A stretch of 64,000 bases of DNA from Candidatus Uhrbacteria bacterium (GTDB lineage: Bacteria > Patescibacteriota > Patescibacteriia > GWA2-47-26): NCBI GenBank assembly GCA_016187515.1, contig JACPJN010000008.1, positions 4,525-68,524 on the forward strand, written 5' to 3'. The notes under the pieces are model-generated. The model did not search any database, was not told where the DNA came from, and saw nothing but the letters and a program-made list of their open reading frames with translations. This document shows positions 2,324 through 59,681 of the stretch, piece by piece; within the stretch, counting starts at the first letter, position 1, and every line of letters begins with the position of its first letter. The position numbers and the translations under genes were made by a program.

Positions 2324-2998
2324 ATGTCAGTTTCATTTTTTTCACGCGTCAGCGCGCTTATCCCGGGGATTTTGGCGGTACTGGTTGGAACCATCGGATT
2401 CAGCGTTTTATTGCGGCCGGGCCTGGATCGTTTTCAGGAGATTCGCGCGGAGCTTAATGGGCGGCAGCGCGATTATCAGGACGCCCGGACGCGTTTTGGC
2501 GAATTAAGTGAAATTGAAAACCGGTTAAAAGCAATCAGCCCGGATGAGCTTAAAAAACTAAAAGCATTTTTCGTGGAAGCGCCGGAAGTTGCGCATCTGC
2601 TTAACGCTTTGGCGGATCGGGCGGCCGCGGCGGGTTTTTTTATCGGATCGCTGGAGGTCGGACGGGCACGGGAGACGGAAATAACGGGCCCGCTTACGGA
2701 TGTCAGCATTCAAGTGCAATTAAAAGGCGGAGGATATCGCGAGCTTAAGCAATTGCTTTATCTGCTCTCTAAAACCGTGCCGCTTCTGGATTTTACCTCT
2801 TTTGCTTTTCAACCCCAAAACGCGCTAGTCAGTTTGAATCTCAAAGCCCGGGCGGTCGTGAAAGCCGATACTCCGAGCGCGGTTCCGCTGGATGTGAGTT
2901 TTTTCACTGATCCGAATTTTCAGGCGCTTTCCGCTCCGGTGGATCTGCCGGCGCTCGAGGCGGTTGGCCGAGAAAATCCGTTCGCGCCCTTAGAGTGA
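2324..2998 (+). CDS. pilO: PilO-like pilus assembly protein
   Basis: N-terminal TM helix plus coiled coil. Gene order pilM-N-O. Confidence 0.5.
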   Translation: MSVSFFSRVSALIPGILAVLVGTIGFSVLLRPGLDRFQEIRAELNGRQRDYQDARTRFGELSEIENRLKAISPDELKKLKAFFVEAPEVAHLLNALADRAAAAGFFIGSLEVGRARETEITGPLTDVSIQVQLKGGGYRELKQLLYLLSKTVPLLDFTSFAFQPQNALVSLNLKARAVVKADTPSAVPLDVSFFTDPNFQALSAPVDLPALEAVGRENPFAPLE

Positions 2999-3059
2999 CT
3001 GTTGCCGATGGAGTAGTTTGACTCCGGGATTGGTCGGAAAATGAAACCACCACCGCAGT

Positions 3060-4802
3060 ATGCAATCGTTGGTACAGGTACAAAACGAATTTCTGAAATT
3101 TTTGGTTAGCCAGGGCCTCCTCTCTAATGAAAGCGCCCGGGAGGTTGAGCAGCACGCGAGCGCCGAAGGGGTTGCGGCTGATCAGCTGCTGGTCCGCGAG
3201 AAAATTATTTCCGAGGAGGAATTAACCAAGCGGAAGGCCGTTTTTTTCGGTATTCCGTACGCTGATCTAACCGGCCAGCGCGTTGATCCGCGAGTCCTAA
3301 AGATTATCCCCAAGCATGTCGCGGAGAACTATCACGTCGTCGCTTTCGGAAGGGATGCCGGCGAACTTAAAGTGGCAATTGCAGACCCGCGTAATTTTCA
3401 AGCGATGGCCGCGCTTGATGTGCTGGCCTCCAAGGTGAACCTGCGCTTGCGGTATTATGCCGCGTCACCCTCTAGTTTTGATTCCGCGTTTAAGGGCTAC
3501 GCGGAACTCAAAGGCGAAGTGGAGGAAGCCGCGGAAGTCGCCCGAAAAGAGCTGGAACCGACCGGCAAAAAGGACGCCGCGCCGGTAGCGGAGGTGATTA
3601 AAGGAGCGCCGGTTTCCCGCATCGTATCCGTTATTATGCGGCATGCCTATGAAGGGCACGCTTCCGATATTCACATCGAACTTCATCAAGGAACCTCGCG
3701 CGTGCGCTATCGGATTGACGGAGTATTGCGGACTACCCTGACCTTGCCGGAGGCGCTTCACTCTTCCATCATCGCGCGCGTTAAAGTGCTCGCCAATTTA
3801 AAACTCGACGAAACGCGGGTTCCCCAAGACGGCCGGATTACCGAGACGATTGGAGATAGACCCATTGATTTCCGCGTCTCCACTTTGCCGCTCCAGGAGG
3901 GGGTGGAAAAAGTAGTGCTCCGGATTCTTTCCACCGAAAGCGCGCCAACGCTGGCCGATCTCGGATTCAATGCCGAGCATATAAAAATTATTGAGAGTAA
4001 TATAAAAAAGCCGCACGGCCTGATCCTGATTTCCGGTCCAACCGGCGCGGGTAAGTCCACCACCCTGTACGCGATATTGACTTTGCTCAATCGCGAAGGG
4101 ATTAATATCGTGACCCTGGAAGACCCGATCGAATACTTCATTGAAGGGATTAATCAGTCGCAGATTCGTCCGGAGGTTGGCTATACTTTCGCCACCGGGC
4201 TGCGTTCAATCTTGCGCCAAGACCCCAATGTGATTATGGTCGGGGAGATTCGCGACGGAGAAACTGCCGAACTTGGCGTGCATGCCGGACTAACCGGACA
4301 CCTGCTGCTGACAACCATTCATACCAATGACGTGCTGGGCGTTATCCCGCGGCTTATTGATCTGAAAGTCGAACCGTTTTTGCTGGCCGCGACATTTATG
4401 CTGGGTATTGCCCAGCGCCTGGCCCGGAAGATCTGTCCGGATTGCAAGGAAACCGCGAAAATCCCCGATAGTTTGGCGGCCGCCATGCGGGACGAGCTGA
4501 AGAAAATTCCGAAGCGTTATCTTACGGACAATATCAATAGCGGCGCGCCCTTGACATTTTATCGCGGCCGGGGATGCCCAAAGTGTGGTACAATGGGTTA
4601 TCGGGGACGCGTGGCCGTCTCGGAAGTCCTGCAGGTAACGCCCGCCTTGTCGCAGCTAATCGCGGACGGTTTTAAAATGGGCGATGAAGTAACCCGCGAA
4701 TTATCCGCGCAAGAAATGATTAGCATGAAACAAGACGCCCTGCTAAAAGCGCTTCAAGGACTGACCACGATTGAGGAAGTTCTGCGCGTGAGTAAAGAAT
4801 GA
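3060..4802 (+). CDS. pilB: type IV pilus assembly ATPase PilB (GspE family)
   Basis: Walker A ISGPTGAGKSTTLYA, GspE signature region, and C-terminal zinc knuckle CPDCK...CPKCG. Confidence 0.9.
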   Translation: MQSLVQVQNEFLKFLVSQGLLSNESAREVEQHASAEGVAADQLLVREKIISEEELTKRKAVFFGIPYADLTGQRVDPRVLKIIPKHVAENYHVVAFGRDAGELKVAIADPRNFQAMAALDVLASKVNLRLRYYAASPSSFDSAFKGYAELKGEVEEAAEVARKELEPTGKKDAAPVAEVIKGAPVSRIVSVIMRHAYEGHASDIHIELHQGTSRVRYRIDGVLRTTLTLPEALHSSIIARVKVLANLKLDETRVPQDGRITETIGDRPIDFRVSTLPLQEGVEKVVLRILSTESAPTLADLGFNAEHIKIIESNIKKPHGLILISGPTGAGKSTTLYAILTLLNREGINIVTLEDPIEYFIEGINQSQIRPEVGYTFATGLRSILRQDPNVIMVGEIRDGETAELGVHAGLTGHLLLTTIHTNDVLGVIPRLIDLKVEPFLLAATFMLGIAQRLARKICPDCKETAKIPDSLAAAMRDELKKIPKRYLTDNINSGAPLTFYRGRGCPKCGTMGYRGRVAVSEVLQVTPALSQLIADGFKMGDEVTRELSAQEMISMKQDALLKALQGLTTIEEVLRVSKE

Positions 4803-4831
4803 TAAAGTAATAAAATAATAAAACTAATCGT

Positions 4832-5218
4832 ATGCCGCAATCGAAAAAGACCAAAATTCTAATTGTGGAGGATGATACCTTTCTCGCGGGCATTTACGCG
4901 AATAAATTTGAGAAGGAAGGATTTGAAGTGTCGCTGGCAACGGATGGCGAGGCGGGACTGAAGGCCGCCGGCAAAGAAAAACCCGACATCGTTCTGCTGG
5001 ATATTTTACTTCCCAAGCTGGACGGTTTTGAAGTGCTGGAAAAGTTAAAGGCGGATACGGGACTGCGCGCGATACCGGTAATCTTGCTCACTAATCTTGG
5101 ACAGAAAGAGGATGTTGATAAAGGACTGAAATTGGGCGCGGCCGACTACCTGATCAAGGCGCATTTCATGCCTTCGGAGACCGTAGATAAGGTGAAAAAG
5201 GTCTTGAGCGCGACATGA
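4832..5218 (+). CDS. CheY-like response regulator receiver domain protein (PilH-like single-domain regulator)
   Basis: KILIVEDD..DIVLLDILLPKLDGFEVL..PVILLTNLG..AADYLIK receiver-domain motifs including the phospho-acceptor Asp. 128 aa with no output domain. Confidence 0.8.
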   Translation: MPQSKKTKILIVEDDTFLAGIYANKFEKEGFEVSLATDGEAGLKAAGKEKPDIVLLDILLPKLDGFEVLEKLKADTGLRAIPVILLTNLGQKEDVDKGLKLGAADYLIKAHFMPSETVDKVKKVLSAT

Positions 5219-5232
5219 TCCGTTTTTAAATT

Positions 5233-6432
5233 ATGGCCGCCTTTAAGTATCGCGCCCGCAGCAAAGCGGGCAAGGTAATTGTCGGAAGGATTGACGCGCC
5301 CAGTATTCAGTTCGCGGAGGATACGCTTTCCGAGCGAGGGCTTCAGGTCATTCTTCTGGAGGAGACGCGCGAGCGCTTTACGATTTCATGGCTCCACGGC
5401 CGGGTTACCGCGCGTGAACTCGTTATTCTTTTTCGTCAGCTTTCCACGCTTTCCGGCGCGAACGTGCCGCTGGTGCAGTCCTTGCGGACGATTGTCGCGC
5501 AGACGACCAATCACGAGCTCAAACGCGTCCTGGCGCTTGTCGCTGACGACGTAGAGGGCGGAGCGCGGCTTTCTTTCGCGTGCGCGAAGCATCCGCGGAT
5601 CTTCACCAATTTTTTTGTAAGCATGCTGAAGTCCGGGGAAACCGCCGGCCGGCTCGCGGAGGTTCTGGAGTACCTTGCCAATCAAACCGAGAAAGAATAT
5701 GATTTGGTTTCCAAAGTGCGCGGGGCGCTGATCTACCCGGCGTTTATTGTTTTTGGAATGCTGGCGGTGGGCGTCGTGCTTTTGGTTTTTGTCATTCCCC
5801 AGCTTACCCAGGTCCTTATTGAATCCGGGGCTGAACTCCCCCTGACGACCCGGATGCTCATCACCAGTTCGGATTTCATGCGGAGCTTTTGGTGGCTGAT
5901 TCTGATTTTTATTGTGGCCGCCTTCGGCGCGTTCCGCTGGGGTTTGCGTTTTAGCGATTTTCGATTGCGGGTGGATACCTGGAAACTGCGGATGCCGATC
6001 CTGGGCACCCTGTTGCAGAAAATTTATTTGGCCAGGATTACGCGGAGTTTGCAGATCCTTATTTCCGGGGGAGTTGACGCGGTGGGGGCGCTCGAGGTGA
6101 CTTCCGACGTAGTGGGAAATAAATATTATGAGGAATTATTGCGGGAAACCAAGCGCGAAGTCGCGGATGGCAGTCCAATGACCACAGTACTCCAGCAAAG
6201 CCCGCTGGTTCCCGGAATGGTTTCCCAGATGCTTACGGTTGGCGAAGAAACCGGACAATTTACCGCCATTTTAGATAAACTGACCGGATTTTATACGCGG
6301 GAGGTTGATAATGCCGTAACCACCCTGGTTTCCGTGATCGAACCGCTGCTCATGGTTGTTATTGGGATTGGAGTGGGACTCGTGGTGGCCTCGATTATTT
6401 TGCCAATGTATCGGCTGGCGGGACAATTTTAA
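5233..6432 (+). CDS. pilC: type IV pilus inner-membrane platform protein PilC (GspF family)
   Basis: Two GspF-type repeats with TM segments. Follows pilB. Confidence 0.85.
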   Translation: MAAFKYRARSKAGKVIVGRIDAPSIQFAEDTLSERGLQVILLEETRERFTISWLHGRVTARELVILFRQLSTLSGANVPLVQSLRTIVAQTTNHELKRVLALVADDVEGGARLSFACAKHPRIFTNFFVSMLKSGETAGRLAEVLEYLANQTEKEYDLVSKVRGALIYPAFIVFGMLAVGVVLLVFVIPQLTQVLIESGAELPLTTRMLITSSDFMRSFWWLILIFIVAAFGAFRWGLRFSDFRLRVDTWKLRMPILGTLLQKIYLARITRSLQILISGGVDAVGALEVTSDVVGNKYYEELLRETKREVADGSPMTTVLQQSPLVPGMVSQMLTVGEETGQFTAILDKLTGFYTREVDNAVTTLVSVIEPLLMVVIGIGVGLVVASIILPMYRLAGQF

Positions 6433-6435
6433 GCG

Positions 6436-6532
6436 TGGTATACTAGTCCTATGTGGATAAGTGACCCCGATCGCGATCGGGGTCATCCTGAGGAGTCCCG
6501 ACCAAGTCGGGACGACGAAGGATCTCGCGCCT
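6436..6532 (+). promoter_or_regulatory. putative pilin promoter (extended -10 TGgTATACT at 6436-6444) and structured 5' UTR with two perfect hairpins (6463-6484 GACCCCGATCGCGATCGGGGTC; 6495-6513 GTCCCGACCAAGTCGGGAC)
   Basis: Read directly from the sequence. Sits between the pilC stop and the pilin ATG at 6533. Confidence 0.35.
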
Positions 6533-6976
6533 ATGAAGAAGAAGGGTTTTACCCTAATTGAGCTTTTAGTGGTCATCGCGATTATCGGAATACTCGCGGT
6601 AGTCAGCGCCGTATCGCTTAATCAGGCGCGCCGGCGCGCGCGGGATACCAAACGCGTCGCGGATATACAGCAGCTGCGCAATGCCATGCTGTTATATTCA
6701 AATTCGCGCGCGGATTATCCGGCCGGGAGCGGGGTTAACCTTGGCGAGGGAAACGCGCGCTGTCTTGATGATGACGGCTTGCACGACAATTGCGCTCCGG
6801 GCGGCCTGCTCATTATGGAGCGCGTGCCGGGCGAGGCGACAAACGGCCACCCCGAATATGTCTATACGAGGGTCGATGCCAATGAGTATCAGATTACGTT
6901 TCAATTGGAAGGGCCGATCGGCGATTTAGCCGGCGGGAATTGTACCGCCGATTCAGAGGCGATTACCTGTACTTAG
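6533..6976 (+). CDS. type IV pilin (prepilin with class III signal peptide MKKKG|FTLIELLVVIAIIGIL)
   Basis: Canonical prepilin peptidase cleavage motif G/FTLIE and hydrophobic N-terminal helix. Cys pair near the C-terminus. Start reassigned from 6461 to the ATG at 6533. Confidence 0.8.
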   Translation: MKKKGFTLIELLVVIAIIGILAVVSAVSLNQARRRARDTKRVADIQQLRNAMLLYSNSRADYPAGSGVNLGEGNARCLDDDGLHDNCAPGGLLIMERVPGEATNGHPEYVYTRVDANEYQITFQLEGPIGDLAGGNCTADSEAITCT

Positions 6977-7011
6977 GCCTCGTCCTTAAGCAAAAGAAAG
7001 GGGGTGAGACA

Positions 7012-7536
7012 ATGACAATAAGAATGAAAAATGCAAAATTGAAAATGCAAAATAGGCGGGGCTTCACCCTCATTGAACTTTTGGTAGTGATCGCGATTAT
7101 CGGAATACTCTCGACGCTGGCCGTTGTCTCACTTGGCAATGCTCGAGTACGCGCTCGAGATTCTAAGCGAGTGGCGGATATTCGCAATACCCAGACCGCG
7201 CTGGAGATCTACTACACCGACCGGACTGCCTATCCGGCGGCAGCTACCTCTGGCGCATGCGTGCCGGGAACTACGCTGGAAGGCTGCTGTCTGGAGAATG
7301 CGGCAACTGGCGGCGGATGGCTCGCGACCTGCACCAGCGCCAACCGTTTGATCACCGTGCCCAATGACCCGCGAAACGGGACCGGGACCACGGATGACTA
7401 TCTTTATCAGCAAAGCGGGAGCAATTACTCAATCACCTTTAACCTGGAGAGCGGCGCGGGGGATTTGAGCAGCGGAGCGAATTGCGCGCGGCCGTCTGGA
7501 ATTTCTGCAGTCGGTACAGGTACATGCGCGCCATAG
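7012..7536 (+). CDS. type IV pilin paralog with a long leader (MTIRMKNAKLKMQNRRG|FTLIELLVVIAIIGIL)
   Basis: Same prepilin N-terminal domain after a 17-aa K/M/Q/N-rich leader encoded by AAAATGCAAAAT-type repeats. The ORF-track start 6940 is a TTG; the ATG at 7012 is preferred. Confidence 0.75.
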   Translation: MTIRMKNAKLKMQNRRGFTLIELLVVIAIIGILSTLAVVSLGNARVRARDSKRVADIRNTQTALEIYYTDRTAYPAAATSGACVPGTTLEGCCLENAATGGGWLATCTSANRLITVPNDPRNGTGTTDDYLYQQSGSNYSITFNLESGAGDLSSGANCARPSGISAVGTGTCAP

Positions 7537-7563
7537 GGCCGATCCAGACGTAGTAAGGAAGCG

Positions 7564-7599
7564 AAGGCTGCCTCATGAAGAGGCAGCCTTTTGCGTTTT
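7564..7599 (+). terminator. rho-independent terminator after the second pilin (AAGGCTGCCTC-atgaag-GAGGCAGCCTT + TTTGCGTTTTG)
   Basis: Perfect 11-bp stem followed by a T-rich tract. Confidence 0.6.
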
Positions 7600-7617
7600 G
7601 TGATACAATAGTGGACT

Positions 7618-8487
7618 ATGACGGCAATCATTTTTGTCCTTGGTTTGGCTGTGGGTAGTTTTTTAAATGCTTATATTTGGCGTTTACACGCAATGACGGA
7701 TAGCCGCGGATTAAGTGGACAGCTAGCCGCGGATCACCGATTACCACGAATTTGGGAAGGACGATCAATGTGCCCCAAGTGCCGCAAGACCTTGCGCTGG
7801 TTGGAGTTAATTCCGCTGGTCTCATTTATTATCCAACTCGGCCGCTGCCGGGGGTGCAAGGCTCGTATTGATATCCAATATCCACTTGTTGAACTAGCGA
7901 CTGGTATTTTGTTCGTACTAAGTGTTTGGAATTTGTCCTCCCACGGCGGACCCGCCTCGGGCGGGGAAATTGGGATTTGGGATTTGTTTCGGATTTCGGA
8001 TTTCGGATTTCGGATTTTACCACAGTGGTACTTATTGGCCGTACTGGTCATTCTGTTCGTCTACGATCTTCGCTTTGGGTTGGTTCCGGACCGTGTCGTA
8101 TTGCCGGCAATCCTGATCGCCTTTCTGTATGGCATGATTCGTCCGGGTCAGATAAATCAATTATCCATGATTCATAATTCATTATTCATGATTCTGGCAA
8201 CCACGGTTGGCGCCGGCTTTTTCGCGCTTCAATACTATCTTTCCAAAGGCCGCTGGCTTGGCGCCGGCGACATCCGCATCGGCGCGCTGATGGGAGCGAT
8301 GCTGGGTTTTCCGCTGATTTTTGAAGGGCTGGCAGTGTCGTATTTTATAGGCGGCGCGGTGGGAATCGGATTGCTGGCGGCGGGACGAAAGCGGTTTGGG
8401 GAGACCCTGCCCTTGGGAACATTTTTAACCGTCGGCGCCGCGATCGCGTTTTTGTATGGTCAGGAGCTTTGGAACTGGTATTTTTGA
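7618..8487 (+). CDS. pilD: prepilin peptidase PilD (A24 family) carrying an in-frame repeat insertion at about 7920-8030
   Basis: N-terminal zinc-binding CPKC...CRGC domain and polytopic membrane peptidase domain with a GAGDIRIGALMGAMLG-type motif. The insertion encodes SSHGGPASGGEIGIWDLFRISDFGFRILPQ, made of tandem TCGGATTT and GGGATTTG repeats. Confidence 0.8.
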   Translation: MTAIIFVLGLAVGSFLNAYIWRLHAMTDSRGLSGQLAADHRLPRIWEGRSMCPKCRKTLRWLELIPLVSFIIQLGRCRGCKARIDIQYPLVELATGILFVLSVWNLSSHGGPASGGEIGIWDLFRISDFGFRILPQWYLLAVLVILFVYDLRFGLVPDRVVLPAILIAFLYGMIRPGQINQLSMIHNSLFMILATTVGAGFFALQYYLSKGRWLGAGDIRIGALMGAMLGFPLIFEGLAVSYFIGGAVGIGLLAAGRKRFGETLPLGTFLTVGAAIAFLYGQELWNWYF

Positions 8488-8491
8488 TAAT

Positions 8492-9223
8492 ATGAGTACG
8501 AATTGCGAATCTCGCGCAAATACTACTAATTCGAGTGATCGATATATTCGTAATATTCGCAACTCATTCGTTGATTCGTACACAGAGCGCGGAGCGCGAG
8601 GTTTTACGCTTATTGAGCTCTTGGTGGTGATTGCGATTTTTGGCATCGTGACAACCGCCGTGGTCGCTAATTTAAAAATCGGCGAGCAGGGAAGCGAGTT
8701 GCGCCTTTCCGCGCAGGCCCTGGTCAGCCAGCTTCGAGAAATGCAAACCATGGCGCAGACCGGTAAAACGGTTAAAATGTGCGCCGGGCAGGGCGCGGTT
8801 GGGTCCCCGGGATATTGCGAGGATAGGCAGGCCGGCGGCCTTTGCGAAAATACAAATATCCAGTGCGATTGCAGCTGTGTTGATCAAGTCCCGCCCGGCG
8901 GCTATGGTCTGCGCATTGATCGTACGGCCGTTACGGCTTTTGTGGATATCAATCGCTCCCATGTTTATGAGGAAGGAGAGGAATTTACCGGTGTGGACTT
9001 TGAACTTCCGCGGCGGATCGCGGTTTCCGAACTTATTCCCGCGGCTCCTCTGGATATTGTCTTTACTCCGCCCGCCGGATCCGTCTGGATTAACGGGTGC
9101 GATTCGGGAATTGCCGAAAATGACTGTCCTCCTGCCGCGCGGGTTACTTTAGGGCACGCGCGGCTCCCGCAAGTCCGGACCGTTACGATTTACCGCGTGA
9201 GCGGAAGAATCGAGTCGGAATAA
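8492..9223 (+). CDS. pseudopilin / minor pilin (prepilin-type N-terminal domain ..RG|FTLIELLVVIAIFGIV) with a long 37-aa leader; start uncertain
   Basis: Prepilin cleavage/methylation motif. ATG at 8492 in the frame of the 8456 ORF, which overlaps the pilD end. Many Cys in the C-terminal domain. Confidence 0.55.
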   Translation: MSTNCESRANTTNSSDRYIRNIRNSFVDSYTERGARGFTLIELLVVIAIFGIVTTAVVANLKIGEQGSELRLSAQALVSQLREMQTMAQTGKTVKMCAGQGAVGSPGYCEDRQAGGLCENTNIQCDCSCVDQVPPGGYGLRIDRTAVTAFVDINRSHVYEEGEEFTGVDFELPRRIAVSELIPAAPLDIVFTPPAGSVWINGCDSGIAENDCPPAARVTLGHARLPQVRTVTIYRVSGRIESE

Positions 9224-9239
9224 TTTTTTACGAAAATTT

Positions 9240-9806
9240 ATGCTCTCCCACGCGCGCGGCCAAGGCCTTCTGGAAACGGTTGTCGCGATCGGAATTATTA
9301 CGACCGGTCTGTTTTCGGTTATTACCCTGGTCATTTCCAATCTGACTACCCAGCGTGAAGCCGCGTTTCGCTATCAGGCCATGAATTTCGCGCGCGAGGG
9401 GGTTGAACTTGCGCGCAACATTCGCGACTCCAATTGGTTGACGGGGCAAGATGACGTGTGGGCCGGTCTGCCGGCGGGTCAGTTAATTCCGCAGTTTGCT
9501 ATTGGAGAGGCGGAAATTAGGTTTGAACCGGCGCAGACGGGATCCCGGATTATTTATCAATGCGAGGACGGCTCCTACGCGCAGGGCCGCGCCAGCTGTA
9601 CCGCACCCACGCCTTTTTCGCGCACTGTCACGCTCGATATCTTGCCTTGCGGCGAGGAGGAGACCGTCCCCTGCGAGGGGCTGGAGGGGCTTCCAAGCGA
9701 GCGGCGGGCGCGAATCGCGATGCGGGTAACTGTCGAGGTGGCGTGGATAGACCAGGAGCGGCCGCGGAGCGTCGAATTAAGTCAGCTGTTATATGACTGG
9801 CGTTAG
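9240..9806 (+). CDS. minor pilin-like protein (PilV/PilW-like), hydrophobic N-terminal helix
   Basis: ARGQG|LLETVVAIGIITTGLFSVITLVISNL resembles a degenerate prepilin N-terminus. Location within the pilus cluster. Confidence 0.4.
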   Translation: MLSHARGQGLLETVVAIGIITTGLFSVITLVISNLTTQREAAFRYQAMNFAREGVELARNIRDSNWLTGQDDVWAGLPAGQLIPQFAIGEAEIRFEPAQTGSRIIYQCEDGSYAQGRASCTAPTPFSRTVTLDILPCGEEETVPCEGLEGLPSERRARIAMRVTVEVAWIDQERPRSVELSQLLYDWR

Positions 9807-11229: not shown

Positions 11230-13392
11230 ATGACTAAACAAGAGGCAAAGCAGAGGATTTCCAAATTGCGTCAAGCGATTGATCATCATCGCTATCTTTA
11301 TCATGTGCTGGATCGGCAAGAGATCTCGGAAGCCGCGCTTGACTCGCTTAAGCATGAATTATTTAAGTTGGAGCAGGAGTTTCCGGAATTTATCACTCCG
11401 GATTCGCCAACCCAGCGGGTCGGCGGGGCGCCTTTACCCGAGTTTAAGAAGGTGCCGCATAAGACCCCAATGCTTTCAATGGAAGATGTGTTTACCGCGG
11501 AGGAATTAAGCGAGTGGCTGGCGCGTATTAAGCGGTTATATCCGGCAGGCGCGTATGATTTTTACGCCGAGTTAAAGATGGACGGGCTTGCGGTCTCACT
11601 TATCTATAAACGCGGCGTCCTCGCCGTTGGCTCTACGCGTGGCGATGGGAGAGTGGGGGAGGATGTCACCCAGAATTTAAAGACGATCGAAGCGATCCCG
11701 CTCCGATTACGTATCCCGACGGAGAAGGAGATCAGAGAAATTTTTGCGGATCATAACCCCTCCCAACCTCCCCTTACCTTAAGGGGAGGAGATCGATCAA
11801 TACCCCCTCTTAAGATAAGAGGGGGGAGGGGGAGTTATGAGGCCGCAGGAAAGGCAGTGTATAACAACATCAGGAATGCGCTTGAACATGGCGAGATTGA
11901 AGTGCGCGGCGAGGTGTTCATGCTGAAGAAAACATTTGACGCACTCAATCGCGCACAAAATAAAAAAGGAGAAGAGCCGTTTGCCAATCCGCGCAATGCC
12001 TCCGCCGGTGCGATACGCCAGCTTGATCCGGCGATCAGTGCGTCGCGAAAACTTTCTTTTTTTGGTTATGCGCTTCTTTGCGATCTTGGTTTGACCATGC
12101 ATGCGCAGGAACATGAACTCATGAAATTGCTCGGTGTGCCGATTAATCCTTTGAGCGAGCATTGTGCGACCGTTAATGAAGTTGCTGCATATCAGAAACA
12201 TATTCAGAAAATGCGCGAAAAACTGCCATATTGGACCGATGGGATTGTGGCAGTCGTAAATGATGATCGCACTTTTGAACGGTTAGGCGTGGTCGGCAAA
12301 ACCCCGCGCGGAATCGTGGCATATAAATTCCCGGCGGAGCAGTCAACCACACACGTGGCCGAGGTGCGCTGGCAGGTGGGACGCACTGGAGTGCTCACCC
12401 CCGTGGCGGTGATGGATCCGGTATTTGTGGCCGGTACGACGGTGAGGCACGCGACCCTCCATAATATGGACGAGATTGAGCGGTTGGGGCTCAAGATGGG
12501 GGATACGGTTATTTTGGAAAAAGCCGGAGATATTATTCCGAAGATCATCAAGGTGCTTCCCAAATTGCGGACGGGAAAAGAAAAAGCGATCCAGGCGCCC
12601 ACGCACTGTCCGGTCTGCGCCGCGCGCGTGGAACGTCCCGAGGGAGAGGTGGCCATTCAATGCACGAACAAAAATTGTCCGGCCAAGCACCATGAGCGGC
12701 TGATTCATTTCGTGTCTAGAAAGGCGTTTGACATCGATGGACTGGGAGAAAAGATTGTGAAGCAGCTTATGGATGTTGGTCTTATCTCCACCCCGGCGGA
12801 TATTTTTAAACTGGAAAAAAGCGATCTGGTGGATCTCGAGCGATTCGCCGACAAGTCGGCAGAAAATTTGATTGCCGCCATTGCTAAAGCCCGCGAGATC
12901 AGTTTACCGCGCTTTATTTTTGCCCTCGGAATCAAACATGTTGGTGAAGAGACCGCGGTGGATTTGGCGAAAAGGTTTGGTACGCTAAAGAAGATTCGCG
13001 AGGCCACGTTTGAAGAATTGAATTCGGTTCCGAACATCGGAGAAGTCGTGGCGCAGTCATTACACGAATACTTTTCCGACAAGCACAGCCAAAAGCTGAT
13101 TGACGACTTACTCGCGTCCGGCATCAAAGTTCAAAGCTCTAAGCTCTCTGCCATAAGCCCTAAGCTTCACGGCCTGACGTTCGTTTTGACCGGCGGCCTG
13201 GAATCCATGACCCGCGATGAAGCCAAAGAAAAAATCCGCGATTTAGGCGGCGATATTTCCAGTTCTGTCTCGAAGAATACCGACTATGTTGTGGTTGGCA
13301 GCGAGCCAGGGGATAAACTGGCGCGAGCTAAAAAATTAAATGTAAAAATACTTAACGAGAAGCAATTTCTGGAAATGCTAACGGAAAAGTAA
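11230..13392 (+). CDS. ligA: NAD-dependent DNA ligase LigA carrying an in-frame palindromic element insertion (11752-11839)
   Basis: KMDGLAVSL adenylation motif, Cys4 zinc finger CPVC..C..NCPAK, HhH region, C-terminal BRCT (LTFVLTGGLESMTRDEA). The insertion encodes HNPSQPPLTLRGGDRSIPPLKIRGGRGSY. Confidence 0.9.
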   Translation: MTKQEAKQRISKLRQAIDHHRYLYHVLDRQEISEAALDSLKHELFKLEQEFPEFITPDSPTQRVGGAPLPEFKKVPHKTPMLSMEDVFTAEELSEWLARIKRLYPAGAYDFYAELKMDGLAVSLIYKRGVLAVGSTRGDGRVGEDVTQNLKTIEAIPLRLRIPTEKEIREIFADHNPSQPPLTLRGGDRSIPPLKIRGGRGSYEAAGKAVYNNIRNALEHGEIEVRGEVFMLKKTFDALNRAQNKKGEEPFANPRNASAGAIRQLDPAISASRKLSFFGYALLCDLGLTMHAQEHELMKLLGVPINPLSEHCATVNEVAAYQKHIQKMREKLPYWTDGIVAVVNDDRTFERLGVVGKTPRGIVAYKFPAEQSTTHVAEVRWQVGRTGVLTPVAVMDPVFVAGTTVRHATLHNMDEIERLGLKMGDTVILEKAGDIIPKIIKVLPKLRTGKEKAIQAPTHCPVCAARVERPEGEVAIQCTNKNCPAKHHERLIHFVSRKAFDIDGLGEKIVKQLMDVGLISTPADIFKLEKSDLVDLERFADKSAENLIAAIAKAREISLPRFIFALGIKHVGEETAVDLAKRFGTLKKIREATFEELNSVPNIGEVVAQSLHEYFSDKHSQKLIDDLLASGIKVQSSKLSAISPKLHGLTFVLTGGLESMTRDEAKEKIRDLGGDISSSVSKNTDYVVVGSEPGDKLARAKKLNVKILNEKQFLEMLTEK

Positions 13393-13515
13393 CAAGGGTA
13401 GAAAATAATTAAAATCACTCAAAACGTCAAAATACTCAAAAGAATCCATAGCCCATAGCCGTAAAATACTCACGATCGTGAATAAAATTCTACTACGTCT
13501 GCCGTATTCATTATT

Positions 13516-14133
13516 ATGCCGCAAAAAAGTAAAAAGAGGAGTCCATCACGCACTCAGCGCATTTTAGCTAAAATTGATCCGGTGCTTACTCCCGCGCGAG
13601 AGGCATTGTATGAACTAAATCTATTTCTCGGAGCCGCTTCCGGATGGCATCCGATGAGTATTAGTGAATACGAAGACCGCCTTGCAGGGCAGCAGTGGCG
13701 TGAAAAGAAGGAGCGAATTCAATATCTCAAAGAACGGAAATGGATTGAAACGAAAAAGATAGGAAAAAAACTGATGGTGCGGCTTACCGAAAAGGGATGG
13801 CAACAGGTGTTGCGCGACCACATACGATGCACAAAAGTTATGTGCAAGGATGGGGTATGCATTCTCGTGATTTTTGATGTTCCGGAATCGCAACGGCATG
13901 TGCGCGATACATTGCGTTGGATTTTGTCGGAGTGTGGTTTTACTATGCTCCAGAAAAGCGTGTGGTACACCAATAAAGACGTACTTGAACCCCTCTGCGC
14001 GCTTCTTCAAGGAGCAAAACTCAATAAGTGGGTACGTATCATTGTAGGTAATGAGTTTCGGCAGTCGATGATAAAAAATGCAGTAGTTCGTCTGCACGCT
14101 AGGCAAAAGTCCGCAAAAAGCTCACGATCGTGA
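13516..14133 (+). CDS. winged-helix domain fused to a Cas2-like C-terminal domain (orphan Cas2 homolog)
   Basis: C-terminal half ILVIFDVPESQRHVRDTLRWILSECGFTMLQKSVWY..VRIIVGNEFRQSMI matches the Cas2 pattern (beta1-FD-V, basic helix, G-F/RxQxSV). N-terminal ~110 aa is wHTH-like (KKLMVRLTEKGWQ). No cas1 or CRISPR array in the window. Confidence 0.45.
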   Translation: MPQKSKKRSPSRTQRILAKIDPVLTPAREALYELNLFLGAASGWHPMSISEYEDRLAGQQWREKKERIQYLKERKWIETKKIGKKLMVRLTEKGWQQVLRDHIRCTKVMCKDGVCILVIFDVPESQRHVRDTLRWILSECGFTMLQKSVWYTNKDVLEPLCALLQGAKLNKWVRIIVGNEFRQSMIKNAVVRLHARQKSAKSSRS

Positions 14134-14144
14134 GCTTTTTGCGG
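14111..14144 (+). terminator. 34-nt perfect palindrome CCGCAAAAAGCTCACGATCGTGAGCTTTTTGCGG overlapping the stop codon of the Cas2-like gene; likely bidirectional terminator
   Basis: Perfect hairpin flanked by A and T runs. Identical copy at 58404-58437. Confidence 0.5.
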
Positions 14145-14436
14145 CAATGGACGGGGTAGTGTGTTTATTGGTGTGGTAGTGTTGCTGATATTTTTACTGG
14201 TAGTGTTGCTCGGTAGAGGTAGCAGAATCACTACTGCGCATTTGTCGCGGTATATTATTTACGATCGTAAATAATATACGGAAGGCGGAAGGATGACATG
14301 GCAAGCCAGTAGAGTCAATTATGGCAAATTGTGGAGAAAGTGGAGAAAAAGAAAACCGAGCGAGGGCTCGGTTGGCGGCGTGCGCGGTGCACGTTCGCCC
14401 TAGTGATACAGTCGTGGGTGGCCTGCCTGCTGTTGA

Positions 14437-15540
14437 TCAGGAAACTGGCGGACAGGTACCTCTGTGCATGCCTCCCTCGTCCGGTTCGGGGAGCGGCCAA
14501 GCATCCTCCGGCTCGTAGATCTTGCCGAGCGGAGACAGCTCCATGCGGATAATCCCTTGTGCATCCGTTGGCGCTGGCTTGGCGTTGGGCCAGTGGATCT
14601 GGCCGCAGCAGGGGGAATTGACAAGCATGTCACGGTAGAGCGGTACGGCTTGCCGGATGAGCGGCGATGGGTCGCTCCGTTCGAGATCCGCAAGTACCGG
14701 GCTCCAGATCCTCGCTCCTTCTGCGCGATCATCTTGATGCATCCCTGCGATGGCGTTAAGCCAGCCATGCAGCAGAGCGAGACGAACTTCCTCCGGCAGT
14801 CGGGTATCCCGGAAGCGCTGCACTCTTACGATGCTCGTGAGAGCGCCACGGCGCGTGAAATACACCGCGATCCGCATTGCGGCACGCGCGAGGTCTCCAT
14901 CGCAGTGCTGGATGTCGTCCGTCACGGTCTGCTCGAACCACGGTTCGGCCGCGAGCGCCCGGCTGCGCGAATTCTCAATAAGCGTGTCAGAGGGCGTCTT
15001 ACCAAGCTGGTCCGCAAGACCCCTGTACGCGTGGTAGCGTAGGTGGGCTTTGGTTTCCTTGGGATTAGGATGGCCATGAAGGTATTCACGCAGGAACGCG
15101 TAGAACTGATCGAACTCCGCCGGAGTACGCTTCGAAGGCGCGATCGCCCGATCGATGCGGATCTTGCCGTCCTCGTTACGTGCTGGCAAGAGACACAGCA
15201 GCGTATCCGGTGCGCTCGGGTCCGGAAACATGTCCGTGTAGTAGTCGAAGACCATGTATTCTCCGCACTGCCGCGGCTTGAAGGTAGCATCCACCTCCGA
15301 CTCGCCCTTGGGTGCGCAGGCGCTGCCGTTTTGGTTCGTGCGCATGTGGTAGCCCGTAGGGCAGGCGATCTGTTGAGATGCAACTGACGGTGCACGATCC
15401 GCGGGCTGCTTTTGTACCACACGGGACGTGAGCCAGTGCTCCTGCTTTTTCGAGGTCGCGCATCCGGCGAGCGCCAGAGCGCAGATCATGAGAACGTGCA
15501 AAGAGCGCATCGGGAATTCCTCCTTGTTTATGCTCTCCAT
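14437..15540 (-). CDS. hypothetical lipoprotein (signal peptide + lipobox LALAGC); GC-rich gene, likely horizontally acquired
   Basis: N-terminus MRSLHVLMICALALAGCATSKK. Local GC is clearly higher than flanking genes. Minus-strand terminator hairpin CCGAGCCCTCGCTCGG + T-run at about 14355-14385. Confidence 0.5.
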   Translation of the reverse strand: MESINKEEFPMRSLHVLMICALALAGCATSKKQEHWLTSRVVQKQPADRAPSVASQQIACPTGYHMRTNQNGSACAPKGESEVDATFKPRQCGEYMVFDYYTDMFPDPSAPDTLLCLLPARNEDGKIRIDRAIAPSKRTPAEFDQFYAFLREYLHGHPNPKETKAHLRYHAYRGLADQLGKTPSDTLIENSRSRALAAEPWFEQTVTDDIQHCDGDLARAAMRIAVYFTRRGALTSIVRVQRFRDTRLPEEVRLALLHGWLNAIAGMHQDDRAEGARIWSPVLADLERSDPSPLIRQAVPLYRDMLVNSPCCGQIHWPNAKPAPTDAQGIIRMELSPLGKIYEPEDAWPLPEPDEGGMHRGTCPPVS

Positions 15541-15673: not shown

Positions 15674-15967
15674 ATGGCACTCACTAAAGCAGAAGTCCTG
15701 CATATTGCAAAATTGGCGCGGTTGGAGTTGAAGGAAGAAGAGGTGGAGAAATTTCGGACGCAGTTGTCCGAGATTTTGGAGTATGTGGGGCAGTTGCAAA
15801 AGGTGGACACGGCCGGGATTGAGCCGATTTCCCAAATTACGGGTTTGCAAAATGTAGTGCGGGAAGATTTGGTGCGCGGATGTGAACCGGACGTGCGGGA
15901 CGCTATGCTTGAGCAGTTTCCGAAAAGGAGAGGAGATTTGCTCGAGACACTAGGCGTGTTTGAGTAA
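15674..15967 (+). CDS. gatC: Asp-tRNA(Asn)/Glu-tRNA(Gln) amidotransferase subunit C
   Basis: 97 aa. MALTKAEVLHIAKLARLELKEEEVEKFRTQLSEILEYV is typical of GatC. Directly upstream of gatA. Confidence 0.8.
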   Translation: MALTKAEVLHIAKLARLELKEEEVEKFRTQLSEILEYVGQLQKVDTAGIEPISQITGLQNVVREDLVRGCEPDVRDAMLEQFPKRRGDLLETLGVFE

Positions 15968-16090
15968 TTTCTAATTGTTCTAATTATTCTAATTGATCTA
16001 AACAATGACTAATGTCCAATGACCAAAATTGGGATTTGGGGCTTGGGATTTGTTTAGAATAATTAGGTCAATTAGGTGAATTAGATCAAT
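15964..16090. repeat. AT-rich inverted-repeat element (arms ..TTCTAATTATTCTAATTGATCTAAACAA / TTGTTTAGAATAATTAGGTCAATTAGGTGAATTAGA) filling the gatC-gatA intergenic region
   Basis: Second copy at 17547-17658. The left end abuts the gatC stop codon TAA. Confidence 0.6.
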
Positions 16091-16092
16091 TT

Positions 16093-17556
16093 ATGCCAAA
16101 GCTCAACGAACTCACCATCACCGCCGCCCACGAGGGTTTAAAGCAAAAAGAATTTTCGTCCGAGGAATTGACGCGGGCGTGTCTTAGTCGTATTGCCGAG
16201 GTGGATGGCAAGATCGGCGCGTTTTTGACGGTGCTTGATAAAGAGGCGATCGCGCAGGCCAAAGCCGTGGATAAAAACATCAAGGCCGGTTTGATTCCGG
16301 GTCCGCTGGAGGGGATTCCGGTAGCGCTCAAAGATAATATGTTGGTGCAAGGAGTGAAATGCACGGCGTCTTCGCGTATTTTGGAAAACTACGTTGCGGC
16401 GTATGACGCAACAGTGGTTACAAAGCTCAAACGCGCCGGCGCGGTGATTTTAGGTAAGACCAACAATGATGAATTCGCCATGGGATCTTCCGGCGAAAAC
16501 TCGGCATTCAAGGTTACAAAAAATCCTCATGACCCGGAGCGCGTGCCGGGCGGATCCTCGGCTGGATCGGCGGCCGCAGTGGCGGCCCACGAAACAATCT
16601 ACGCGCTGGGATCTGATACGGGCGGCTCCATTCGTCAGCCGGCTGCGTTATGCGGCGTGGTGGGACTGAAGCCCACTTACGGTTCAGTGTCTCGGTATGG
16701 GTTAATTGCTATGTCATCCGGCTTAGATATCATTGGGCCGTTGACCAAAACCGTGGAAGATGCTCGGATTGTGTTTGATGCGATAAGAGGGAAAGACCCG
16801 ATGGATGCGACGACGGTGGAATTGAGAGAATCAGGAATCATGAATTATGAATCAGGGGTTGGGTTGAAAGACGTACGTATCGGTGTACCGAAGGAGTATT
16901 TTATTGATGGGATGGATAAGGAGACTGAAGCGCGGGTACGCGAGGGCATTGCACAGCTTAAAAAACTCGGCGCTCAAATTGTCGAAATTTCTTTACCATA
17001 TTCTCCGTATGCGCTGGCGGTCTATTATATTTTGATGCCGGCGGAGGTGTCGGCGAATTTGGCAAGGTATGATGGAATACGATATGGATATAGTGAATTA
17101 GTTCACAGTCCACAGTCGTCAGTTCACAGTTTGTTGGAGTTGTACGAGAAATCGCGTTCCGAAGGTTTTGGCGACGAGCCAAAGCGGCGGATTATGATCG
17201 GAACGTATGTGCTTTCGGCCGGATACGCCGATGCTTATTATAAAAAGGCACAAGCCGTTCGCACCCTCGTAAAGCGCGATTTTGATGAGGCCTTTTTGAA
17301 AGTGGATTGTATTGCCACTCCAACTACACCAACTCCGGCTTGGCTTATTGGCGAGAAGATGGATGATCCGCTGTCCATGTATCTTGCCGATATTTATACT
17401 GTGTCCGCAAATATCGCGGGGATTCCGGGAATTTCAGTACCTTGCGGCAAGGCGCAGGGGCTGCCGGTGGGGTTGCAAATTCTGGCGCCGCAGTTGCGAG
17501 AGGATGTGGTGTTTAGGGTGGCAGGAGCGTATGAGCAGAGTCGTACAAATTTCTAA
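16093..17556 (+). CDS. gatA: Glu-tRNA(Gln)/Asp-tRNA(Asn) amidotransferase subunit A
   Basis: Amidase signature GGSSGGSAAAVAA and GatA-length protein (487 aa). Confidence 0.9.
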   Translation: MPKLNELTITAAHEGLKQKEFSSEELTRACLSRIAEVDGKIGAFLTVLDKEAIAQAKAVDKNIKAGLIPGPLEGIPVALKDNMLVQGVKCTASSRILENYVAAYDATVVTKLKRAGAVILGKTNNDEFAMGSSGENSAFKVTKNPHDPERVPGGSSAGSAAAVAAHETIYALGSDTGGSIRQPAALCGVVGLKPTYGSVSRYGLIAMSSGLDIIGPLTKTVEDARIVFDAIRGKDPMDATTVELRESGIMNYESGVGLKDVRIGVPKEYFIDGMDKETEARVREGIAQLKKLGAQIVEISLPYSPYALAVYYILMPAEVSANLARYDGIRYGYSELVHSPQSSVHSLLELYEKSRSEGFGDEPKRRIMIGTYVLSAGYADAYYKKAQAVRTLVKRDFDEAFLKVDCIATPTTPTPAWLIGEKMDDPLSMYLADIYTVSANIAGIPGISVPCGKAQGLPVGLQILAPQLREDVVFRVAGAYEQSRTNF

Positions 17557-17658
17557 TTGCTCTAATTATTCTAATTGACCTAAACAATACACAATATCCA
17601 ATGTTCAATCTTGGGATTTGTTTAGAATAATTAGGTCAATTAGGTGAATTAGAAATTT
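17547..17658. repeat. second copy of the AT-rich inverted-repeat element, overlapping the last codons and stop of gatA
   Basis: About 90% identical arms to 15964-16090. Central loop contains TTGGGATTTG, as in the pilD insertion. Confidence 0.6.
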
Positions 17659-28292: not shown

Positions 28293-28364
28293 TCCGGGGT
28301 GGCGCAGCGGTAGCGCAGCTCCCTGTTAAGGAGTTGGTCGTGGGTTCGAATCCCACCCCCGGAG
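28293..28364 (+). tRNA. tRNA-Asn (anticodon GTT)
   Basis: Manual cloverleaf: acceptor TCCGGGG/CCCCGGA, D arm GCGC-AGCGGTA-GCGC, anticodon arm GCTCC-CTGTTAA-GGAGT, T arm GTGGG-TTCGAAT-CCCAC, discriminator G. 72 nt. Confidence 0.85.
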
Positions 28365-28557: not shown

Positions 28558-28580
28558 TTTGAAATACAAAACAAAGTGCA

Positions 28581-28752: not shown

Positions 28753-28806
28753 TTACTGCTCAAAGAGGGTTTACTTCAATGCTAAAAAGTGGTAGGATGG
28801 GGGAAT

Positions 28807-58088: not shown

Positions 58089-59681
58089 ATGACCAGATTG
58101 CCACAGATCACGGATATGCGATTTCGTACTCTCGTTTTGATATTTCTTCTTGCCGAGCTTGTTTCATACACGGGATATTTTTTTCCAGCAATAAATACCG
58201 CGGGATTTTTTGTGACTGTGGCGGCGGCGTTGGTGCTATCGCTTAAGCGGCTGGAGTATGGATTGTATTTTGTATTGGCGGAATTGATTTTGGGAGGGAA
58301 AAGCGGAGCGCTGTTTTCTTTTGAATATGGGGGATTTTTTCTTTCGCTGCGCATGGCATTGTTTATCGTGATCATTGCAGTATGGTTTGCTAAAATGATC
58401 GGCCGCAAAAAGCTCACGATCGTGAGCTTTTTGCGGCAGCCATCTTTAAGATGGTGGGGCATTCTAGGTATCGCTGTGCTCTGGGGAATTATAGTTGGAC
58501 TTGCGCGCGGCAATGATTTTGGCAATGTGTTCCTAGATGCGAATGGATATTTTTATGCCGCATTAATTTTGCCAGTGTGGTGGGCGCTTAAGGGTGCGAA
58601 TTACGAATCCGTTGCGAATTCACGAATCTCGAATTCGGAGATTCGCAAATCCCAGTCGAATTCGCAATTCGCACCCCTCGGTACAGTGTTTTTTGCCGCC
58701 ACCACCCTCCTCGCGCTGAAGACGCTTTTTGCGGTGTATCTTTTTACCCACGCCGGCAGTAATTTTATTGGCGCGAATTTGGCGCCGTTTTATCGGTGGA
58801 TCAGGGATACCGGAGTAGGGGAGATTACTTGGCTGCCCGGAAATTTCGCAAGAGTGTTTTTCCAGAGTCAGATTTATAATGTGATGGCGTTTTTCGCGGT
58901 GCTGGTTATTCTGATGCGCACCCCCTCTCACTCCCCCTCGGAAAGGGGGAGAAATTGGTTGCAATTTCCTCCCCTTTTCAAGGGGAGGTTCGGAGGGGTC
59001 TTGATTCTCAATACCGCCGTCATCATTGTTTCCCTTTCCCGCAGTTTTTGGGTGGGGATGATCGCGGGATTGCTCGTGGTCGCGGTGGTCTCGGGCCGTA
59101 TCGGACGGATACGGCATATCGGACGCCTGGTCGGCCTCCTTGCGGGTTCCGCGGTCGCGGCAGTACTGCTGCTTCTTGCCTTCGCCCGTTTTCCATTCCC
59201 CAAACCGGCCCCGGCGGATTTGGGAACCGCGGTCCAAAGCCGGCTGGAAGCCGGAGACGCCGGACAAAGCCGCTGGAATCTTTTGCCGGCAATGTGGAGT
59301 ACCGTTCGTGAGCATCCAATCCTTGGCAGCGGATTTGGGCGCACGGTAACGTATATCTCGAATGATCCCAGAGTTCGTGAGGTTAGCCGTACCGGAGAAT
59401 ATACAACTTACGCTTTTGAATGGGGGTGGATTGACGTGTGGGTGAAGATGGGACTGATGGGACTTATAGGTCTTATCGGTCTTATGGGACGCATAGGAAT
59501 TATGCTCTACCGTCGGGCAAAAACTGACCCTCGGGCCTTGGCTGCTCTTGCAGTTCTCGCTGTTCTTGCTTCAATCAATATATTTACCCCCTACTTAAAT
59601 CACCCCTTGGGGCTGGGCATTTTAATCCTGCTTGCCGGGATAAGTATCGCTTGTCAGGAGAAGCGCCTTATGGTATCCTGA
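58089..59681 (+). CDS. large polytopic membrane protein (possible O-antigen ligase/polymerase-like) carrying three repeat insertions
   Basis: >10 TM helices. Insertions: the 34-nt CGATCG palindrome (58404-58437, encodes KKLTIVSF), GAATTCGC-type tandem repeats (58612-58680, ANSRISNSEIRKSQSNSQF), and a family-2 element (58918-59000, PSHSPSERGRNWLQFPPLFKGRFGGV). Confidence 0.4.
   Translation: MTRLPQITDMRFRTLVLIFLLAELVSYTGYFFPAINTAGFFVTVAAALVLSLKRLEYGLYFVLAELILGGKSGALFSFEYGGFFLSLRMALFIVIIAVWFAKMIGRKKLTIVSFLRQPSLRWWGILGIAVLWGIIVGLARGNDFGNVFLDANGYFYAALILPVWWALKGANYESVANSRISNSEIRKSQSNSQFAPLGTVFFAATTLLALKTLFAVYLFTHAGSNFIGANLAPFYRWIRDTGVGEITWLPGNFARVFFQSQIYNVMAFFAVLVILMRTPSHSPSERGRNWLQFPPLFKGRFGGVLILNTAVIIVSLSRSFWVGMIAGLLVVAVVSGRIGRIRHIGRLVGLLAGSAVAAVLLLLAFARFPFPKPAPADLGTAVQSRLEAGDAGQSRWNLLPAMWSTVREHPILGSGFGRTVTYISNDPRVREVSRTGEYTTYAFEWGWIDVWVKMGLMGLIGLIGLMGRIGIMLYRRAKTDPRALAALAVLAVLASINIFTPYLNHPLGLGILILLAGISIACQEKRLMVS

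Follow-up and report, generated by a model that had tools for sequence, protein, structure and literature searches.

PaaX is a phenylacetyl-CoA-responsive repressor, with PaaX_C as its effector domain. The operator of Escherichia coli PaaX, TGATTC-N27-GAATCA, has half-sites ~33 bp apart, and PaaX represses its own promoter (PMC9493321). Here, we describe a gene on the forward strand of a 64,000-nucleotide stretch of Candidatus Uhrbacteria DNA (GenBank assembly GCA_016187515.1, contig JACPJN010000008.1, positions 4,525 to 68,524; hereafter the window) that bears on the relationship between PaaX and Cas2. A sequence-only reading of the window had taken the product for an orphan Cas2-like protein fused to a winged-helix domain, lying in no CRISPR locus and ending inside a perfect palindrome. 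The analysis presented here leads us to think it fairly likely that this "orphan Cas2" is a mini-PaaX regulator. The palindrome, which is centred on CGATCG, is the most informative feature of the locus, and the conserved palindromes of this kind are probably binding sites of the protein itself, as judged from their sequence and placement.

Domain composition and fold

The open reading frame (ORF) runs from an ATG to a TGA stop codon at 14131-14133, and the NCBI protein P0001, encoded on a contig of 80.9 kb, is identical to its product over the equal length of 205 aa. In Pfam, residues 112-181 match the PaaX protein central Cas2-like domain (PF20803, PaaX_M) with E 3e-14 and 53.3 bits against a cutoff of 24, whereas Pfam Cas2 (PF09827) stays under its cutoff of 23.8 (E 3e-4, 21.2 bits) and covers residues 116-151 only. 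The NCBIfam cas2 model (TIGR01573) lies just above its cutoff (E 4e-6, 26.9 bits against 24.5), yet over model positions 3-38 of 96 and again confined to residues 116-151, or beta1-alpha1-beta2 of the fold. This marginal and partial match, on which the name rests, explains why NCBI calls P0001 Cas2. Cas2 models in PADLOC match the protein at E 1e-6. For PaaX as a whole (TIGR02277), residues 71-175 align with PaaX positions 44-148 at 22.7 bits, compared with an equivalog cutoff of 264.55, and the protein has no Pfam match to the N-terminal winged helix of PaaX (PF07848) or to PaaX_C (PF08223). Sequence searches of the Protein Data Bank (PDB) with the protein and with its profile returned weak Cas2 matches only. 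PF20803 is matched by all 38 close homologs, and 25 of the 38 show a weak winged-helix match to DUF6293_C.

The AlphaFold2 (AF2) model, built on 101 homologs, has a mean predicted local distance difference test score (pLDDT) of 89.7. It places three helices and a beta-hairpin wing (77-90) in residues 12-105, a beta-alpha-beta-beta-alpha-beta domain like that of solved Cas2 structures in residues 114-179, and a single C-terminal helix in residues 185-204, after which nothing further follows. The winged-helix region proper (49-105) comprises a long recognition helix, the wing and a linker helix. An earlier, shallower structure model gave the same picture of the fold. Searching the PDB with the whole model in Foldseek returned PaaX of E. 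coli W as the top match (8a39, E 9e-4, 130 aligned columns), followed by many Cas2 structures (E 3e-3 to 5e-2, TMt 0.45-0.62), with VapD structures scoring lower (E 0.08-0.6). In hhalign, residues 65-173 pair colinearly with residues 58-166 of E. coli K-12 PaaX, from the recognition helix through helix 2 of the middle domain; the PaaX residues aligned with the recognition helix and wing are 44-80 with TIGR02277 and 58-90 with hhalign. At the signature positions of the family, the profile alignment sets LLSEG of E. coli PaaX against FDVPE, and APSLM against QKSVW.

Judged by these profiles and the modelled fold, the protein is a member of the PaaX superfamily that lacks PaaX_C and has retained the Cas2 signature. 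The family is known to databases (PF20803) and mis-named Cas2 by NCBI, and the architecture is a new variant. The winged-helix and Cas2-like domains described in the sequence-only reading are borne out by profiles, AF2 model and Foldseek, and its Cas2 motif resemblance was recovered over residues 116-151, where the fold agrees. The identity as an orphan Cas2 stands insofar as a Cas2-fold domain does lie outside any CRISPR locus, but not as to family, which is that of PF20803 and PaaX and not that of CRISPR Cas2. Conversely, an assignment to a PaaX-type family with no Cas2 fold, raised as the contrary case, applies in its first half (PF20803, 53 against 24 bits) and not in its second, the domain itself being a Cas2 fold with the signature.

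A genuine CRISPR-type Cas2, whether an orphan, an adaptation remnant or the partner of a cas1 at another genomic locus, would fit the presence of both the Cas2 fold and the signature as well as the TIGR01573 and PADLOC scores. However, these matches span ~36 residues, Pfam Cas2 remains below threshold, PaaX_M scores far higher than the Cas2 models, and the same polypeptide carries a DNA-binding domain. Moreover, the ~4,700 clusters of the family fall mostly in Patescibacteria, a group largely without CRISPR-Cas, and a genome can hold several paralogs. The 64-kb window yielded no CRISPR array in scans for tandem repeats, direct repeats and Rfam families, and a Pfam scan of 26 of its other ORFs (138-800 aa, part of the ORFs in the window) found no Cas1, in agreement with what had been noted from the sequence; likewise, no cas1 or array was found at the related loci examined. 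The adaptation-module remnant in particular, which had been offered as one option, is not supported, given the very large conserved family, the ligA-X-gatC synteny described below and the lack of cas genes at the related loci examined. On balance, we regard a CRISPR-type Cas2 as extremely unlikely.

Distribution and conservation of the family

A profile search against 1.84 billion representative proteins, with clusters defined at 50% identity, returned 4,683 clusters at E <= 1e-3, of which 1,499 reach E <= 1e-10, and among the best 150 matches listed almost all are 160-210 aa long (range 124-239). Relatives in species-representative genomes come almost exclusively from Patescibacteria (Uhr-, Wolfe-, Yanofsky-, Harrison-, Saccharibacteria and others), and a 270-aa form is present in Pontiella/Kiritimatiellales. 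Relatives of 255-275 aa, including some members of the candidate phyla radiation (CPR), combine PaaX_M with PaaX_C and keep the FDVPE...QKSVW motif, and the long form of Pontiella (locus L051) carries a matching flanking palindrome. No family match was found in phage genomes, and plasmids yielded one weak match, annotated as a PaaX-family regulator.

The signature of the Cas2-like domain reads F-D-V-P-E...R...R..L...F..Q-K-S-V-W. In an alignment of 184 members, D121, R130 and S148 are 100% conserved, P123 99%, R134 and W150 98%, E124 and F120 97%, and Q146 91%, and the top-conserved positions all fall within this domain; residues L71, L90, T91 and G94 of the winged helix are 92-99% conserved.

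Several paralogs of the family occur on one contig in some genomes, and a tblastn search with the protein found no second copy in the window. Three paralogs share one 98.6-kb Uhrbacteria contig (L006 and L007, MGDU01000010.1; L007 coordinates 7989-8636 and 16008-16628), each with a CACGATCGTG site upstream and with differing arms, and a TrwB/TraG-like coupling protein is encoded between two of the three.

Palindromes flanking the gene

The 12-nt core TCACGATCGTGA lies upstream of the gene, its dyad ~41 nt before the ATG, with a -10-like TAAAAT abutting at 13483-13488. It recurs at 14122-14133, where its final triplet is the TGA stop codon; the sequence-only reading had rightly placed this codon inside a perfect 34-nt palindrome (Table 1). 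Shuffles of the window gave zero such matches, and the palindrome folds into a 15-bp hairpin (-26 to -28 kcal/mol). A second downstream site follows in the window, as it does in the orthologous locus L001. The same core is found upstream of the orthologs in L001, L003, L005 and L007, the downstream sites of orthologs overlap the stop codon or lie no more than ~60 nt past it, and some orthologs end in ...SRS*, encoded by TCACGATCGTGA. Throughout the 16.6-kb orthologous loci L001 and L003, ACGATCGT occurs only directly upstream of the gene and at or just past its stop codon.

The association extends to more distant relatives, whose loci were picked out by means of two FDVPE-branch peptide motifs and whose gene boundaries are crude longest-ORF calls. 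Of the occurrences of the exact 12-mer across 82 such loci, 24 lie in the 34 kb that flank family genes and 6 in the other 1,000 kb, and CGATCG reaches a density of 2.78/kb in the flanks compared with 0.26/kb outside them (Fisher p = 9e-75). A CGATCG site lies <= 260 nt from 60 of the 76 family genes with complete flanks, and on both sides of 47 of them. Perfect palindromes without a spacer, with arms 13-27 nt long, are frequent among these sites, and many other sites consist of the 12-nt core only. Perfect zero-spacer palindromes are centred on CGATCG in 55 of 80 cases near family genes and in 6 of 114 elsewhere, and long palindromes adjoin 38 of 75 family genes compared with 48 of 457 other genes. 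The arm sequences vary between genomes and between paralogs, with an identity of 0.86 between the upstream and downstream copies of one gene and of 0.38 between genes. The association of gene and palindrome is both statistical and phylogenetic. The only match to the 26-nt inner palindrome in a metagenome scan was an unrelated 1.5-kb contig without a family gene, and within an incomplete coverage of the literature no publication was found on a connection of PaaX to Cas2 or CPR, or on these CGATCG-centred palindromes.

A solo copy of the palindrome is located in an O-antigen-ligase-like (Wzy-like) gene (58089..59681), in which it forms 12 in-frame codons. This copy is perfect over 36 nt and includes, with no mismatch, the whole 34-nt palindrome at the stop codon of the family gene. 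It sits in a hypervariable loop between transmembrane helices, where the loops of homologs are unrelated and variable in length, and it looks like a recent in-frame insertion. Further solo copies are present in L019, L035, L060 and L067. In L019 and L067, three identical palindromes bracket the family gene plus an adjacent ~1,700-aa gene, an arrangement that suggests small regulons with the giant genes as possible members. These giant proteins, adjoining the family gene at 2745-7820 (L019) and 3927-9251 (L067), have similar N-termini (...THEFLT... and ...THAFLT...).

DNA sites or RNA hairpins

The strong folding of the downstream palindromes raises the question of whether they act as RNA. The protein could bind or cleave hairpins with GAUC loops at the 5' and 3' ends of its own transcript and of a few others, and so control termination or the stability of the mRNA. 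In favour of such an activity, RNases are known among Cas2 proteins and VapD is one as well, as also stated in the titles of PDB entries. In addition, the downstream palindromes form very stable hairpins flanked by runs of A and T, like bidirectional terminators, and the downstream site overlaps or follows the stop codon, so that it is transcribed. However, the upstream copy in the window lacks a stable hairpin (-3.1 kcal/mol, z = 0.1), whereas the downstream copies fold strongly, and its core is nonetheless kept. Among mismatches in the arms, G:T is no commoner than A:C when read on the sense strand, so that the arms show no G:U tolerance. Upstream sites accompany 19 of 28 genes with a divergent preceding gene and 30 of 41 with a co-directional one; with frequencies this similar, the upstream sites are not simply terminators of the preceding gene, and they are equally present in divergent promoter regions. 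At L005, the upstream site lies 5' of the promoter, a strong TTGTTA-N17-TGATATAAT element downstream of the palindrome. The winged helix and the kinship to PaaX also point to duplex DNA, and we find an action at the RNA level very unlikely.

Two narrower candidates were rejected. Selection for an RNA hairpin left no signal in the test for G:U bias, and a role as terminator only is at odds with a core that is kept across phyla, is present at divergent promoters and is weakly structured at the upstream site of the window.

These observations favour recognition at the DNA level by a two-fold symmetric protein, and the downstream copies may double as bidirectional terminators. A -10-like hexamer directly next to the core, on the side facing the gene, in the window, L001 and L015 points the same way.

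Geometry of the putative operators and proposed autoregulation

When half-sites are aligned from the dyad, the invariant centre extends to the consensus TTCACGA/TCGTGAA (the slash marks the dyad). Outside it follow a variable yet symmetric spacer and then an outer box 12-20 nt from the dyad. Outer boxes of the form TTGACTAAA/TTGTAGTAAA pair with "LKRQGF" recognition helices and those of the form CCGC/GCGGC with the "LKERKWIETK" recognition helices of Uhrbacteria, a correlation that is confounded by phylogeny. The outer boxes stand ~32 bp apart, matching the operator spacing of E. coli PaaX (PMC9493321).

From this geometry and the modelled fold, we lean towards an autoregulated dimeric repressor of the PaaX family without the CoA-sensing PaaX_C. 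Among the options listed in the sequence-only reading, it is the regulator that gains support, from the PaaX family membership and the flanking palindromes. In the proposed mechanism, the Cas2-like domains would dimerise, as in Cas2 and PaaX, and the dimer would bind long operators of two-fold symmetry. Its two winged helices would read the paralog-specific outer boxes ~32 bp apart, with the invariant face of the Cas2-like dimer placed over the invariant CGATCG centre. Since the sites lie in the promoter region of the gene and at or past its stop codon, its own transcription would be repressed or insulated, possibly through looping, and the protein may act on a few other sites, such as the one inside the Wzy-like cell-envelope gene. 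Binding to the sites, the contacts between domains and DNA, and repression as the outcome are all what we infer from sequence.

Several points weigh against this repressor. Perfect palindromes of 30-54 nt are unusual as operators of repressors, and the near-identical upstream and downstream arms, together with the solo copy inside a gene, fit copying or mobility better than independent selection as operators. The catalytic-type residues of Cas2 are invariant in this family and lost in canonical PaaX, which suggests that the domain does more than hold a dimer together. A simple scan with inspection found no convincing sigma-70 promoter or -35 element upstream of the gene on the + strand. The E-values of the structure matches are modest, the enrichment statistics ignore shared ancestry and depend on longest-ORF gene calls at motif-selected loci, and the domain-DNA contacts are inferred throughout.

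Some of these features would suit a putative palindrome-specific nuclease or maintenance enzyme that cuts or processes DNA at the CGATCG centre. Here, the dimer of winged-helix (wH) Cas2 proteins would recognise the palindrome as duplex, cruciform or hairpin DNA, a Cas2-type acidic/basic site would come to lie on the dyad axis, and palindromes would be generated, homogenised and spread. The conservation of D121, E124, R130, R134, Q146 and S148 (91-100% in the 184 members), residues that canonical PaaX is without, is in keeping with such an enzyme, although the catalytic residues of Cas2 are dispensable for its main role. The palindromes are strictly perfect, with arms that change fast yet co-vary and with near-identical upstream and downstream copies, and where a genome has several paralogs each has its own arms. 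The solo copy of the 34-nt palindrome, in frame in the variable loop of the Wzy-like gene, and the additional copies in L019, L035, L060 and L067 also agree with spreading. Yet only 6 long palindromes centred on CGATCG lie away from family genes in ~1 Mb, unlike the repetitive extragenic palindromes (REP), and many sites are limited to the bare 12-nt core. In Uhrbacteria, the gene keeps a stable syntenic place and is not mobile, and the protein shows no transposase-type motif and, in the Pfam scan, no HUH-type domain. On this evidence we regard a palindrome-specific nuclease as unlikely. That the wH-Cas2 proteins of CPR are in general active, site-specific enzymes on their own palindrome dyads, in-frame transposition included, seems distinctly unlikely. 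If a palindrome-acting enzyme were true, it would be a Cas2-fold counterpart of REP and RAYT, and would stand, as an extant form, between Cas2-like nucleases and the repressors of the PaaX family.

Gene neighbourhood and features of the window

The family gene lies between ligA (11230..13392) on its 5' side and a convergent ORF (14437..15540, - strand) without a Pfam match on its 3' side, beyond which gatC, gatA and lgt follow; paa genes are not among these neighbours. In the Uhrbacteria orthologs (50-77% identity), the order is pilus genes, ligA, the family gene (X), a variable slot, gatC, gatA and lgt, so that the synteny of the gene is conserved, in addition to its family membership and fold. 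The slot before gatC holds an unrelated 190-aa ORF in L001 and no ORF in L003; in the window, it is occupied by the convergent ORF, which lies within a GC-richer kilobase (0.56) and encodes 367 aa, with a lipoprotein-type signal but without a match to any Pfam family.

Clustering of neighbours over 80 loci revealed no conserved partner gene, the largest cluster comprising 8 loci. What recurs are housekeeping genes, such as those encoding LepA, ClpB, PBP2, TrxB and DsbA; neither cas nor defence genes are among the recurrent neighbours at these 80 loci, and no cas genes are present at the orthologous loci. An operon partner and a toxin-antitoxin pair were rejected as explanations, the clustering having given no shared partner. 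The VapD-like toxin proposed in the sequence-only reading gains no support either, given a weaker fold match to VapD than to Cas2 or PaaX and no conserved partner gene.

Table 1 Coordinates of the gene, its domains and the CGATCG-centred palindromes in the window.
Feature	Coordinates	Strand	Evidence
PaaX-superfamily gene, two-domain 205-aa protein without PaaX_C	13516..14133	+	ORF, PF20803, AF2 model, Foldseek
Winged-helix region, residues 49-105	13660..13830	+	Secondary structure, TIGR02277, hhalign
Cas2-like (PaaX_M) domain, residues 112-181	13849..14058	+	Profiles, model, family alignment
Upstream site, 12-nt core TCACGATCGTGA at 13470-13481	13467..13484	.	Core search; same core in orthologs
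Perfect 34-nt palindrome CCGCAAAAAGCTCACGATCGTGAGCTTTTTGCGG, core TCACGATCGTGA	14111..14144	.	Palindrome search, folding
Second downstream site, perfect 30-nt palindrome, TACGATCGTA centre at 14260-14269	14250..14279	.	Palindrome search, folding
Solo 36-nt palindrome copy, core at 58414-58425	58402..58437	.	Palindrome search

The gene content of the window is that of CPR housekeeping, including a type IV pilus, sigma-70, pentose-phosphate enzymes, tRNA synthetases and MreBC. Other repeats are present besides the CGATCG palindromes. At least 9-12 copies of a repeat of ~80-90 nt, bounded by CATAAC...GTTATG and containing one or two hairpins of the CCTCCCCTTAnnnTAAGGGGAGG type, were found, at 11752-11839 (inside ligA), ~45520, 48063, 49307, 51800, 52247, 53789, 54678 and 57021. 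The ligA copy is in frame and encodes ...PPLTLRGGDRSIPPLKIRGGRG..., and "PPLxLRGG" insertions similar to this product occur in the variable loop of Wzy-like homologs. Some copies directly precede gene starts and could supply GGAGG and ATG. A second palindrome family, with a GGATCC centre (TCCGCC..GGCGGATCCGCC..GGCGGA), is found at 53865-53902, 48589-48620 and 7934-7965, and also in another Parcubacteria genome (L038, ~1976). A 73-nt intergenic repeat containing TTCTAATTG 9-mers has two copies (15966-16038 and 17548-17620) that are 85% identical and start at the 3' ends of gatC and gatA, one each.

Two larger regions also differ from their surroundings. At 28500-31950, three tandem units of ~1.0-1.3 kb share upstream blocks of 118-155 nt with 88-96% identity, each preceding an ORF of 208-244 aa (28789.., 29893.. 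and 31211..), adjacent to a tRNA at 28293-28364; the units look like an array of paralogous gene cassettes. At 32000-38400, a low-GC island (0.34-0.41 compared with ~0.52 in the rest of the window) encodes an 800-aa N6-methylase/Eco57I-type fusion, an HsdS-like specificity subunit and two ORFs without a Pfam match, and is probably a horizontally acquired restriction-modification system.

Comparison with known systems

The identity of the protein matters beyond this locus, as the mis-annotation of thousands of Patescibacteria proteins as "CRISPR-associated endonuclease Cas2" inflates the apparent cas content of the group. Regulation in CPR is almost unexplored, and the gene and its palindromes offer a testable protein-DNA pair for one of possibly the commonest regulator families there. 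A PaaX branch with the full Cas2 signature is also relevant to how transcription factors acquired a Cas2-like nuclease fold, or how recruitment ran the other way, and the perfect, co-varying palindromes with an in-frame solo copy hint at an unusual generation or movement of binding sites.

With Cas2, especially that of type II-A (6jhz, 8ia4, 5zyf), the protein shares the ferredoxin-like fold, the Asp that ends beta1, the alpha1 arginines and, in beta2, the Q-x-S-V-aromatic motif. It differs in being fused to a winged helix, in its extra C-terminal helix, in having no cas1 or array nearby and in a similarity limited to ~36 residues. At 205 aa, with an N-terminal winged-helix region of ~110 aa, it is also longer than stand-alone Cas2 (~80-120 aa), and it belongs to a large family that is multi-copy in genomes generally without CRISPR. 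The VapD protein of VapXD (6zn8, 6zi1) is likewise a stand-alone Cas2-fold protein unrelated to CRISPR, but its fold matches less well, the locus holds no VapX-like partner or conserved neighbour, and the protein described here has a DNA-binding domain.

By analogy only, a gene that has its cognate palindromes on both flanks and further copies of them in the rest of the genome recalls REP and RAYT. In that system, tens to hundreds of palindrome copies are dispersed per genome and the enzyme is an HUH-Tyr transposase. Here, by contrast, copy number is very low, the protein has no HUH or Tyr motif, fold and chemistry differ, and the orthologs are syntenic.

PaaX of E. coli and Pseudomonas (8a39; PF07848, PF20803 and PF08223) has the same order of winged helix, linker helix and Cas2-fold middle domain. 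It is the best structural match of the whole model, its alignment is colinear, and its half-site spacing of ~33 bp is like that of the outer boxes. Unlike PaaX, the protein lacks PaaX_C, PF07848 goes undetected in it by Pfam, and its gene has no paa context; it keeps FDVPE, both arginines and QKSVW, which E. coli PaaX has lost. The sites here also differ from the PaaX operator in that CGATCG is invariant at their centre, full palindromes are common among them and they are found on either side of the gene.

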